Below are positions 54,377 through 64,000 of a stretch of 64,000 nucleotides of DNA, piece after piece. Numbering within the stretch: position 1 is the first letter of the stretch; every line of letters starts with the position of its first letter. A program made the translations under genes and the position numbers. The notes beneath the pieces were generated by a model. That model was not told the DNA's origin and searched no databases. It saw nothing but the letters and a program-made list of their open reading frames with translations. The stretch lies in assembly GCF_044324785.1 (NCBI RefSeq), contig NZ_CP172127.1; one strand, 5' to 3'. Source of the DNA: Escherichia coli (GTDB lineage: Bacteria; Pseudomonadota; Gammaproteobacteria; Enterobacterales; Enterobacteriaceae).

Positions 54377-54585
54377 TATCATGTGAATATATTGTTTTAT
54401 CATTTATATTTAATATGTGAATGGTAAAACAATCTGTTATTAGTGGAATAACTAATGTAATTGAGTGAAATCACTAATTTAAATAATTAAGAATATATTT
54501 ATTCTTTATGACATGCCTTTCTGAATAATCAGGGATACAATATTAAAGCTTATTTTTGACTGTATCATTGTCACAGGGAAAGTGC

Positions 54586-56763
54586 ATGCTGCGATGGAAA
54601 CGCTGTATTATTCTAACATTTATCTCTGGTGCTGCTTTCGCGGCACCAGAGATAAATGTTAAGCAAAACGAATCGTTACCTGATTTAGGTAGCCAGGCAG
54701 CACAGCAGGATGAACAAACCAACAAGGGTAAATCGCTGAAAGAGCGCGGAGCCGATTACGTCATCAACTCCGCCACGCAAGGGTTTGAAAACTTGACCCC
54801 TGAGGCGCTGGAATCTCAGGCCAAAAGCTATCTGCAAAGTCAAATCACCTCAACCGCACAATCTTATATTGAAGACACACTCTCTCCCTACGGTAAGGTC
54901 CGTTCGAACCTCTCCATTGGCCAGGGCGGCGATCTGGATGGCAGTTCCATCGATTATTTTGTTCCCTGGTACGATAATCAAACCACTGTTTATTTCAGTC
55001 AATTTTCTGCGCAACGAAAAGAAGATCGTACAATCGGGAATATTGGTCTTGGAGTAAGACATAATTTTGATGAATGGTTATTGGGTGGAAATATATTTTA
55101 TGATTATGATTTTACCCGAGGACATCGCCGTTTAGGTTTAGGCGGCGAAGCGTGGACTGATTATTTAAAATTCTCTGGCAACTATTATCATCCGCTTTCT
55201 GACTGGAAAGACTCTGAAGATTTCGACTTTTATGAAGAACGCCCTGCGCGCGGCTGGGATATTCGTGCCGAAGCCTGGTTACCTTCTTATCCGCAACTGG
55301 GGGGCAAAGTTGTCTTCGAGCAATATTACGGCGATGAAGTCGCCCTTTTTGGTACGGATAATTTGGAGAAAGATCCCTACGCGGTAACGCTTGGACTGAA
55401 TTATCAACCGGTGCCATTACTGACCGTTGGGACGGATTATAAAGCAGGGACCGGAGATAACAGCGATGTCAGCATTAATGCCACTCTTAATTATCAGTTC
55501 GGCGTTCCGCTAAAAGATCAATTGGATAGCGATAAAGTGAAAGCGGCTCACTCGTTGATGGGCAGTCGTCATGATTTTGTTGAGCGTAATAACTTTATTG
55601 TTCTGGAATACAAAGAAAAAGATCCGCTTGATGTCACCCTGTGGTTAAAAGCGGATGCCACCAACGAGCACCCTGAGTGCGTCATTAAGGACACTCCCGA
55701 AGCGGCCGTCGGGCTGGAAAAATGTAAATGGACCATTAACGCGCTTATCAACCACCACTACAAAATTGTCGCTGCGTCATGGCAGGCGAAAAACAATGCT
55801 GCCCGCACGCTGGTTATGCCGGTTATCAAAGAGAATACCCTGACAGAGGGTAACAATAACCACTGGAACCTGGTGCTGCCCGCCTGGCAGTACAGCTCTG
55901 ACAAAGCCGAACAAGAAAAACTCAATACCTGGCGAGTACGTCTGGCACTGGAAGATGAAAAGGGCAACCGACAGAACTCTGGCATGGTGGAAATCACCGT
56001 TCAGCAGGACCGTAAAATTGAGTTGATTGTTAATAACATCGCGAACGTGCCGGAAGAGAACAACCACAGCCATGAAGCCAGCGCCCAGGCAGATGGCGTT
56101 GATGGTGTGGTGATGGATCTCGATGTAACCGACAGCTTTGGCGATAACACCGACCGCAACGGCGATGCGCTGCCGGAAGATAACCTCACGCCGCAGCTTT
56201 ACGACGCGCAGGACAAACGAGTGACGTTAACCAACAAGCCTTGCTCGACCGACAACCCCTGCGTTTTTATCGCTAAACAAGATAAAGAAAAGGGCACTGT
56301 CACCCTCTCCAGTACCTTACCCGGCACCTATCGCTGGAAAGCAAAAGCCGCGCCCTACGACGACAGTAACTATGTGGATGTCACTTTCCTCGGGACAGAA
56401 ATTGGTGGGCTAAATGCATTTATCTATCGTGTGGGGGCAGCTAAACCCAGCAACCTGATAGGTAAAGATAAAGAACCGCTGCCGCTCAACAACACTTATC
56501 GATTTGTTTTGTGGCGTGACAGCAATAAAGACGGTGTCTTCCAGCAGGTCGAAAAACTGACTGACGAAGAGATGGCGCAGTACGACTACAAGTGGGAATT
56601 TACCGGCAAGAGCATCAATGGTGAAGTGGGTGCACAGGCGAACACATCCAATGAGGACATTGTGATTCCGGCCACTAACCGCGAAGCGGCGCAAACCTAT
56701 GGCGCACAAGCGGGAGATGGCTTGCAGGGATACGGTTTACGCGTGCTGTATACCAAAAAATAA
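54586..56763 (+). CDS. sinH: Intimin/invasin-family inverse autotransporter (SinH-like)
   Basis: Signal peptide MLRWKRCIILTFISGAAFA; region ERPARGWDIRAEAWLPSYPQLGGKVVFEQYYGD...GSRHDFVERNNFIVLEYKEK resembles the intimin/invasin beta-barrel as I remember it; C-terminal passenger; lies next to sinI and ratA. Confidence 0.7.
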   Translation: MLRWKRCIILTFISGAAFAAPEINVKQNESLPDLGSQAAQQDEQTNKGKSLKERGADYVINSATQGFENLTPEALESQAKSYLQSQITSTAQSYIEDTLSPYGKVRSNLSIGQGGDLDGSSIDYFVPWYDNQTTVYFSQFSAQRKEDRTIGNIGLGVRHNFDEWLLGGNIFYDYDFTRGHRRLGLGGEAWTDYLKFSGNYYHPLSDWKDSEDFDFYEERPARGWDIRAEAWLPSYPQLGGKVVFEQYYGDEVALFGTDNLEKDPYAVTLGLNYQPVPLLTVGTDYKAGTGDNSDVSINATLNYQFGVPLKDQLDSDKVKAAHSLMGSRHDFVERNNFIVLEYKEKDPLDVTLWLKADATNEHPECVIKDTPEAAVGLEKCKWTINALINHHYKIVAASWQAKNNAARTLVMPVIKENTLTEGNNNHWNLVLPAWQYSSDKAEQEKLNTWRVRLALEDEKGNRQNSGMVEITVQQDRKIELIVNNIANVPEENNHSHEASAQADGVDGVVMDLDVTDSFGDNTDRNGDALPEDNLTPQLYDAQDKRVTLTNKPCSTDNPCVFIAKQDKEKGTVTLSSTLPGTYRWKAKAAPYDDSNYVDVTFLGTEIGGLNAFIYRVGAAKPSNLIGKDKEPLPLNNTYRFVLWRDSNKDGVFQQVEKLTDEEMAQYDYKWEFTGKSINGEVGAQANTSNEDIVIPATNREAAQTYGAQAGDGLQGYGLRVLYTKK

Positions 56764-63900: not shown

Positions 63901-64000
63901 AAATACTGGGGCCATATGCCGGAAACGTTTACCAGCTCGGCAGGCGTGACCTTCAAGCGCCCATTACTGGCAGCGGAAGCGACTACGGGGAGCTCGGTAA
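57916..64000 (+). CDS. ratA: Giant repetitive surface protein RatA-like (over 2020 codons in window, 3' end beyond window)
   Basis: Uninterrupted + frame from ATG 57916 to the window end (absent from the ORF track because it has no stop); signal peptide [26 protein letters not shown]; at least 7 diverged tandem repeats. Confidence 0.7.
58850..63930 (+). repeat. In-frame tandem repeats inside ratA (period about 800-855 bp, about 270-285 aa), at least 7 units
   Basis: Recurrent DNA motif ttYacNgtNNtcaccagcccNgat...tggggNcatatg at about 58853, 59653, 60462, 61304, 62158, 63013 and 63866; protein motif FTV(I/L)TSPD..KA.(M/Y/F)WGHM. Confidence 0.7.

Follow-up and report, generated by a model that had tools for sequence, protein, structure and literature searches.

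The ila cluster of Escherichia coli consists of sinH, sinI, and ratA (GR17, xseA..yfgJ), has been called "probably derived from CS54," and is common to model strains of avian pathogenic, uropathogenic, and adherent-invasive E. coli (PMC12928451). The CS54 island of Salmonella lies at the same xseA-yfgK site (PMC10048834). SinH is surface-localized, is a protective vaccine antigen, and is enriched in phylogroups B2/D/F/G (PMC9937491). Its passenger comprises three extracellular domains according to Xing et al. (PMC9937491), the third of which is called immunoglobulin (Ig)-like in a 2025 review (PMC12525524); adhesion, biofilm formation, and promotion of invasion are the roles ascribed to it in the literature. 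IatB of Goh et al., the SinH ortholog, mediates biofilm formation (PMC6714894), and sinH and sinI are reportedly cotranscribed (PMC12525524). Goh et al. also noted a barrel-less paralog downstream of iatB and the analogy with zirTSU (PMC6714894), and Heinz et al. suggested SinH-type proteins as the translocators of SinI and Rat-like proteins (PMC4943183). Here, we analyze a sinH-sinI-ratA-like locus in positions 54377-64000 of a 64,000-nt stretch of E. coli DNA, which as a whole we call the window; all genes of the locus lie on the plus strand.

Results

Identity of the locus

The locus is almost certainly the known sinH-sinI-ratA adhesin cluster (ila; SinH = IatB), a three-gene counterpart of Salmonella CS54 at the same yfgJ/xseA site. 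An initial annotation, made from the letters of the window, had noted a match to part of CS54 and to the homologous region of extraintestinal pathogenic E. coli (ExPEC), a match that the published ila cluster bears out (PMC12928451, PMC9937491). It had also listed a sinH-like gene, a 325-aa sinI-like gene, and a giant ratA-like gene running to the window end, all of which NCBIfam and Pfam confirm. The finding is correct and already known, since the cluster is published; likewise published is its clinical relevance, SinH being an ExPEC-associated adhesin and vaccine candidate. What we add is a refinement of the boundaries and ancestry of the locus and a motif shared by the N termini of SinI and the Rat proteins.

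Both the open reading frame (ORF) listing and comparison with annotated genomes show that the gene order of the window, qseE ... isc ... pepB-sseB-sseA-yfhM-pbpC-ndk-rlmN-rodZ-ispG-hisS-yfgM-bamB-der-yfgJ, is that of K-12, as the initial annotation had stated up to yfgJ. Its expectation that xseA comes next in K-12 also holds: in K-12-type genomes yfgJ and xseA overlap by 4 bp, stop codon against stop codon, with no gene between. Beyond 64000, E. coli N3, the best match among 5426 complete E. coli genomes, served as a proxy, so that the end of ratA and the xseA junction are read from N3 and not from the window strain. The RatA-like protein of N3 is 2679 aa long, and 38 bp separate the end of its gene from the convergent xseA, which guaBA follows. 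The features of the locus are as follows.

54099-54160, plus strand: region between der and yfgJ, where the block diverged between island-bearing and K-12-type E. coli begins on the left
54161-54376, plus strand: yfgJ, a 71-aa zinc-ribbon protein, divergent allele linked to the locus
54377-54585, plus strand: AT-rich leader of sinH, 209 bp, 24% GC
54586-56763, plus strand: sinH (= iatB), 725 aa, type Ve inverse autotransporter
56818-57795, plus strand: sinI, 325 aa, Sec-type N terminus, barrel-less partner
56905-56964, plus strand: SinI mature N-terminal motif, residues 30-49, EDSAWIDSGETNIFQGTIPW
57805-57872, plus strand: two hairpins in the sinI-ratA spacer (RNA fold)
57916-64000, plus strand: 5′ part of the RatA-like giant adhesin gene, 2028 of 2679 codons in the window, the total being taken from N3
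58555-59358, plus strand: RatA-like repeat unit 1
59359-60162, plus strand: RatA-like repeat unit 2
60163-61008, plus strand: RatA-like repeat unit 3
61009-61860, plus strand: RatA-like repeat unit 4
61861-62712, plus strand: RatA-like repeat unit 5
62713-63567, plus strand: RatA-like repeat unit 6; unit 7, from 63568, is truncated at the end of the window

SinH scored 1486.9 bits on the NCBIfam equivalog inverse_SinH (NF033423; cut-off 999), with a match that spans its full length, residues 1-725. Pfam places IAT_beta (PF11924) at residues 63-336 (E 2e-108), and the barrel matches the solved structures of invasin (4E1T, E 7e-73) and intimin (4E1S, E 4e-65). The N terminus, MLRWKRCIILTFISGAAFA/APE, reads as signal-peptide-like and is followed by a beta-barrel at residues ~63-343 and a C-terminal passenger of ~380 aa. 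The periplasmic N terminus of SinH includes a conserved LPDLGS stretch. No Big domain was found by Pfam in residues 337-725, though the equivalog model covers the whole protein, and the Pfam search found no LysM domain in SinH. On homology and the literature, SinH is a type Ve inverse autotransporter of the intimin/invasin family, whose N-terminal 12-stranded barrel would reside in the outer membrane and display the C-terminal passenger.

SinI scored 335.3 bits on the NCBIfam model partner_SinI (NF040711, SinI family autotransporter-associated protein; cut-off 165), and no IAT_beta domain was found in it by Pfam. Residues 218-325 align with SinH 631-725 at 35% identity (E 6e-12), an alignment that makes the C-terminal domain of SinI a predicted paralog of the last SinH passenger domain. 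The AlphaFold2 (AF2) model of SinI is all-beta with a mean predicted local distance difference test (pLDDT) score of 73; a Foldseek search of this model against the PDB gave no match with E < 0.001, just weak matches of tandem Ig/fibronectin type III-like kind. A weak match to ZirU_fam (30 bits) lies below the cut-off of 100. Identity between the E. coli and Salmonella SinI proteins is ~45%. Within the signal peptide, residues 19-25 (56872-56892) hold a G20, C22, and P25 (AGYCxxP) that are invariant in 28 homologs from several genera; such invariance is uncommon in the core of a signal peptide, and the sequence does not form a canonical lipobox.

For the giant protein, full-length scores were obtained with the N3 protein, the shared part of which is that of the window but for 2 nt. 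It scored 5399.8 bits on the NCBIfam model 'RatA-like protein' (PRK15316/NF011844; cut-off 3870), and fell short of the Salmonella equivalogs RatA (NF011843; 1997 bits versus a cut-off of 3700) and RatB (NF011842; 2249 bits versus a cut-off of 4079), to which it aligned mainly over residues 8-1460. By the NCBIfam standard, the giant protein is a paralog or a separate family member ('RatA-like') and not an ortholog of Salmonella RatA or RatB. Its layout is a signal peptide, a motif at residues 28-45 (nt 57997-58050), a conserved N-terminal beta domain of ~185 aa that extends to ~residue 213, and then repeats. The repeats number nine, are marked by WGHM, measure 235-285 aa, and are 26-45% identical among themselves; each is made of a BIg21 Ig-like domain and an InvE_AD (InvE-type adhesion) domain, which Pfam finds in alternation with E values of 1e-18 to 1e-34. 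The protein is of the DUF823/DUF824 repeat type. The solved 'putative invasin' 5N40 is matched by one unit (E 4e-24). The window includes units 1-6 in full and the beginning of unit 7.

A search of protein databases with the Rat N-terminal profile returned mostly fragments and not full-length giants. Frameshifts near the signal peptide in several database clusters suggested phase variation by slipped-strand switching at the 5′ end of ratA, which we rejected because the proteins contain multiple in-and-out frameshifts of the sort seen in error-prone assemblies, and neither a homopolymer nor a short repeat is present in the DNA at that point. In E. coli SCPM-O-B-8794 (locus L004, 11472-17896), the rat gene is split into ORFs of 254 and 1881 aa by an apparent frameshift or stop near codon 254.

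A motif shared by the SinI and Rat N termini

In pairwise comparison, the mature chains of SinI and RatA start alike; SinI reads A followed by EDSAWIDSGETNIFQGTIPW. The consensus, approximately (L-K-x-G-x)-W-Q-x5-[ST]-T-x-x-[IF]-[NQ]-G-T-x-P, covers ~20 residues directly after the signal peptide, and W34, T40, G45, P48, and W49 of SinI are invariant in the 28 SinI homologs. A pattern search of 23 related loci located the motif in every SinI-like and Rat-like protein, at residues 24-57 and just past the signal peptide, with no other match among 1011 ORFs (215 thousand aa). Its carriers include a second Rat gene in Leminorella and small SinI-like/Rat-like proteins in Buttiauxella and Lelliottia, and the motif is also present in Salmonella Rat proteins, which were available as fragments.

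A hidden Markov model (HMM) built from SinI residues 30-50 alone was also run against the 1011 ORFs, and its next-best matches after the SinI proteins were Rat-like N termini. Eighteen of 20 Rat-like proteins outranked the first unrelated ORF (E 8e-8 to ~0.07 versus 0.12), all of them with the match just past the signal peptide. Alignment of the SinI family with the Rat N-terminal family by hhalign gave a probability of 94% (E 1e-7) over 47 columns, which comprise the signal peptide and the motif only. The motif occurs in two variants, with and without the preceding LKxGxWQ, and these covary between the SinI and RatA of the same locus. In both AF2 models, it lies in a low-confidence, apparently unstructured N-terminal extension ahead of folded beta domains.

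The third genes of the Buttiauxella and Lelliottia loci (362-413 aa; L023 11382-12467, L021 1758-2861, and L024 11450-12688) join the motif and a SinI-like/Rat-like N-domain to an intimin C-terminal-like domain and look like mini-versions of Rat proteins. Because a SinI-like N-part is here joined to an intimin-like C-domain, the N-terminal module appears to be common and the adhesive C-terminal parts interchangeable. Heinz et al. call the Rat N termini 'highly divergent' and mention no motif (PMC4943183), and we found no earlier description of the shared SinI/Rat motif in the literature.

Possible export of SinI and the RatA-like protein through SinH

SinI and the RatA-like protein, which have neither barrel nor anchor, would cross the inner membrane by Sec and would then be handed to SinH for export or surface docking, as ZirS and ZirU are to ZirT. 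The shared motif that follows the signal peptide is a candidate recognition element for SinH, and RatA, once outside, would present nine tandem Ig and invasin-type modules as a long multivalent adhesin. That SinI and RatA are exported or docked via SinH is a possibility that falls a little short of likely. More tentatively, the motif could be a dedicated targeting or docking signal that marks the clients of the SinH barrel, namely SinI, the RatA/RatB-like giants, and their small relatives, in at least eight enterobacterial genera. As a feature of sequence, the motif gives modest new support to export or docking through SinH and does not prove it.

Several observations weigh against export through SinH. 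IatB mediated biofilm formation without the downstream gene (Goh et al., PMC6714894), and the 12-stranded barrel of inverse autotransporters is plugged by its own linker, which makes the transit of 2679 aa mechanistically problematic, as Heinz et al. discuss (PMC4943183). The generic signal peptide contributes part of the hhalign score, the evidence on the motif is of sequence only, and the regular expression, unlike the HMM, was written after the sequences had been inspected. The 120-nt spacer between sinI and ratA holds two strong perfect hairpins, a 12-bp stem at 57805-57832 followed by UUUCC, and a 16-bp stem at 57836-57872. The fold of 57790-57920 has a free energy of -47.2 kcal/mol (z = -6.2), a stability reached by none of 200 shuffles, and the first hairpin is terminator-like. 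These hairpins could be a terminator, an attenuator, or REP-like elements, and because they lie between the two genes, ratA may be expressed separately from sinI.

These points can also be read to mean that SinH is a self-sufficient adhesin, that SinI is a periplasmic helper that is never exported (a chaperone or regulator of display), that RatA is exported otherwise or is independent, and that the motif serves signal-peptidase processing, a periplasmic chaperone, or a folding nucleus. The activity of IatB alone and the occluded barrel fit a self-sufficient SinH, Ig superfamily proteins are often periplasmic chaperones (PMC4943183), and the spacer hairpins suggest separate control of an independent RatA. 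Set against this, the closest studied analogs, ZirS and ZirU, are secreted in a ZirT-dependent way (PMC2270342), the motif is found in every barrel-less protein behind a SinH-type gene across three architectures and at least eight genera, and the adhesion modules of RatA make sense only outside the cell. We regard a self-sufficient SinH as possible but doubtful.

Distribution and allele classes

Among 5426 complete E. coli genomes, megablast detected the left junction (N3-type yfgJ, leader, and start of sinH) in 1744, the remainder matching just up to the der stop codon, and sinI was detected in 1691. The locus is thus present in ~31-32% of the genomes and absent from K-12 and ~68%, and the RefSeq annotation of 1700 matching genomes agrees with the gene identities. 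Presence in some strains and absence from others is what an island calls for; the initial annotation had held that presence in all E. coli, K-12 included, would speak against one, and the locus proved not to be universal and to be missing from K-12.

Over its whole 9.9 kb, the locus is 90-98% identical at the nucleotide level to other E. coli alleles in ~860 genomes. Its own allele is rare, N3 alone among the 5426 genomes being ≥99% identical. A first class of sinI (≥80% nucleotide identity) accounts for ~938 genomes, including the type strain ATCC 11775. A second, at ~68% nucleotide identity, accounts for 753 genomes, including O25b:H4-ST131, and differs in the 3′ part of ratA. In a third class, found in E. 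coli E69 and cryptic Escherichia, a SinI just 45% identical in amino acid sequence stands behind an 88%-identical SinH. At least three very divergent sinI/ratA allele classes thus lie behind a much more conserved sinH, which bears on vaccine coverage and on how the distribution is read.

Boundaries and origin of the locus

The identity between N3 and K-12 is ~97% through der, falls to ~50% right after the der stop codon (54098/54099), and is low through the first half of yfgJ; on the right side it recovers only ~450 bp into xseA. Megablast matches of K-12-type genomes likewise end at window position 54099. YfgJ is 66% identical to its K-12 counterpart overall and 33% identical in the N-terminal half, which is 73-85% identical to the alleles of other island-bearing E. 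coli and of the cryptic clades, 61% to that of E. albertii, and 55% to that of Escherichia sp. MOD1-EC7003. An island inserted after yfgJ is too simple a picture: the divergence begins at the der stop, and the diverged haplotype takes in yfgJ as well as the 3′ end of xseA.

E. coli has two very different alleles of yfgJ, and which of them a strain has correlates with whether it carries the sinH locus. In other genera, the syntenic loci without exception have yfgJ immediately upstream of sinH, even with 2-5 kb inserted between der and yfgJ. Two extra genes lie between der and yfgJ in Citrobacter (L007 4994-7630, L013 4998-7682, and L014 5979-7517) and in another Enterobacteriaceae genome (L010 5290-7646); they encode a membrane-protein-like product of ~513 aa (393 aa in L010) and a protein of ~355-363 aa.

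The order yfgJ-sinH-sinI-rat-xseA-guaB recurs in E. coli, E. albertii, E. whittamii, cryptic Escherichia, Pseudocitrobacter, Citrobacter, Superficieibacter, and another Enterobacteriaceae genome; at least five genera have it. For Salmonella, the evidence on the locus comes from protein hits and published papers, the scan of genome contigs having returned no Salmonella locus. The GC content at third codon positions (GC3) of sinH, sinI, and the ratA-like gene is 0.514, 0.555, and 0.551, respectively, versus 0.561 ± 0.050 for 43 core genes of the window, and their distances in relative synonymous codon usage are 0.22-0.36 versus 0.31 ± 0.08 for the core; only the 209-bp leader is atypical. The initial annotation had named a composition like that of the core genome as a sign against an accessory island, and the three genes are in this respect core-like.

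N3 differs from the window at 2 positions in 53538-64000 (58868 and 60942) and at 48 positions in 49501-53537 (1.2%); further upstream, the difference is 0-6% per gene. An apparent frameshift in pepB belongs to N3, and the window does not have it. The switch in similarity at 53537/53538, inside der, looks like a recombination breakpoint, and the locus together with the last ~560 bp of der is near-identical in two otherwise diverged backgrounds, those of the window and N3. Because the locus holds only these 2 differences versus 1.2% in the adjacent core, the whole block appears to move by homologous recombination, with which the two deep allele classes of sinI in E. coli are also in keeping. 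Variants in decay are also found. In AST85 (L027 9487-12838), a deletion has fused the initial 1.24 kb of sinH to the final 2.1 kb of the rat gene and removed sinI, and both pieces are annotated as pseudogenes; in E69 (L020 8050-8850), an IS1 (InsA/InsB ORFs) within sinH leaves ORFs of 230 and 488 aa; and SCPM-O-B-8794 has an interrupted ratA.

We consider it probable that the locus has long been resident in the Escherichia/Citrobacter/Salmonella group, that homologous recombination of the whole der-xseA block carries it from one E. coli lineage to another, and that K-12-like lineages have lost it or had it replaced by an empty haplotype. The same order in other genera, the core-like composition, the absence of mobility genes, and the decay variants make it more likely that K-12 lost the locus than that ExPEC gained it. 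One observation pulls the other way: the empty and occupied haplotypes differ strongly in their flanks, a divergence that also fits the import of either state from another species.

A classical pathogenicity island would instead be a block of foreign DNA that entered an ExPEC ancestor in a single event of site-specific or illegitimate recombination at the site between yfgJ and xseA, K-12 retaining the ancestral empty site. The patchy distribution (~31-32% of complete genomes, enriched in B2/D/F/G; PMC9937491) and the AT-rich left edge are in keeping with such an event, and the literature calls the locus horizontally acquired (PMC12525524, PMC12928451). The borders of the locus do not resemble those of an island: as the initial annotation had noted for the boundary, no integrase or insertion sequence (IS) is present, nor is a tRNA, these being absent from the N3 annotation between der and xseA, and no direct or inverted repeats of ≥9 bp common to both junctions were found. 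Neither do GC3 and codon usage depart from those of the core. The position and order are identical in Citrobacter, Pseudocitrobacter, Superficieibacter, E. albertii, E. whittamii, cryptic Escherichia, and Salmonella, the divergence runs into yfgJ and xseA with no sharp insertion point, and partially deleted and IS-disrupted remnants exist. A single foreign insertion is thus unlikely; the behavior of the locus is that of an old adhesin cassette of the chromosome that recombines and decays, and not that of a mobile island.

The sinH leader and other features of the window

The strongly AT-rich spacer of ~210 bp that the initial annotation had seen after yfgJ measures 209 bp (54377-54585) and has 24.4% GC versus 52.8% for window positions 1-54376. 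This leader is poorly conserved except for a block of ~17 nt at ~54485-54502, TTAAGAATATATTTA, which together with the downstream GGAATACAAT is kept across Escherichia, Citrobacter, Pseudocitrobacter, and Superficieibacter. A -10-like hexamer, TACAAT, is located at 54536-54541, 45 nt before the sinH start. The TTAAGAATATATTTA block and TACAAT are a candidate regulator site and a candidate -10 element, respectively, for sinH, and the leader may have a regulatory role, through silencing by H-NS or as a promoter. A simple scan of 54000-58100 for sigma-70 sites and terminators found sites no more numerous than in shuffled sequence, and none in the leader. sinI starts 54 nt past the sinH stop codon and has a Shine–Dalgarno sequence, AAGGAG, 7 nt upstream of its start.

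An Rfam search of 54000-64000 gave no match. Elsewhere in the window, Rfam matches are to the ryfA and IS128 small RNA families (timP/ryfA region) at 35881-36495, between sseB and sseA, to the iscRS element at 28420-28529, and to sroE at 49296-49387, all ordinary core features. yphE, which encodes a sugar ATP-binding cassette transporter ATPase (11884-13395), has an in-frame stop at codon 73 (12100-12102) and is intact in N3; it is likely a pseudogene in the source strain.

Discussion

For the motif, one further explanation is that it is a donor-strand-like extension that, once exported, slots into an Ig-like domain, either in the SinH passenger or in the next subunit, and forms a noncovalent tether of SinI and RatA to the surface, as pilin N-terminal extensions do in chaperone-usher fibers; this would suit the predicted disorder of the extension ahead of all-beta domains, the paralogous terminal domains of SinI and SinH, and a report, as cited in PMC4943183, of ZirT, ZirS, and ZirU as an Ig-domain interaction system, and is nonetheless improbable and purely speculative.

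Should the motif mark the clients of SinH, it would be the first recognizable substrate signal of a 'two-partner inverse autotransporter' pathway, with a role like that of the two-partner secretion (TPS) domain in type Vb systems, and the pathway would become directly testable. The shared motif offers a concrete handle on the export of SinI and Rat proteins by SinH, a question that goes back to the work on ZirTS.

Comparison with known systems

The ila/SinH locus of ExPEC (CFT073, UTI89, ST131, and BEN2908) has the same three genes, order, orientation, and site as the window; ST131-type and related strains, unlike the window, carry the second allele class. Salmonella CS54 lies at the same site, xseA to yfgJ/der, with its sinH, sinI, and rat genes in the order seen here. 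One SinH equivalog model serves both loci, and common to their Rat proteins are the N-terminal domain, the motif, and the BIg21/InvE_AD repeats. The full CS54 set is shdA, ratB, ratA, sinI, and sinH, whereas the E. coli locus, as read from N3, has one rat gene and neither shdA nor ratB.

The gene layout is also that of Salmonella ZirT-ZirS-ZirU, in which the gene for a protein with an IAT barrel precedes those for barrel-less, Sec-dependent beta-sandwich proteins similar to the passenger of the barrel protein. Mature ZirS starts with DS (PMC2270342). Rat-like proteins are also associated with Yfr4 of Yersinia. Dependence of export on the barrel protein is shown for ZirS and ZirU, whereas for SinI and RatA it would follow by analogy, and no giant repeat substrate is known for ZirT. 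The locus has none of the hallmarks of a classical TpsA/TpsB pair (a beta-helical TPS domain with NPNL/NPNGI motifs at the substrate N terminus, and an Omp85/POTRA transporter). With invasin, intimin, and InvasinE, it shares a SinH barrel homologous to the solved barrels and RatA units that match the InvE-type adhesion domain and 5N40. Invasin and intimin carry their Ig and adhesion modules on the same chain as the barrel, whereas here nine such modules sit on a separate, barrel-less polypeptide.

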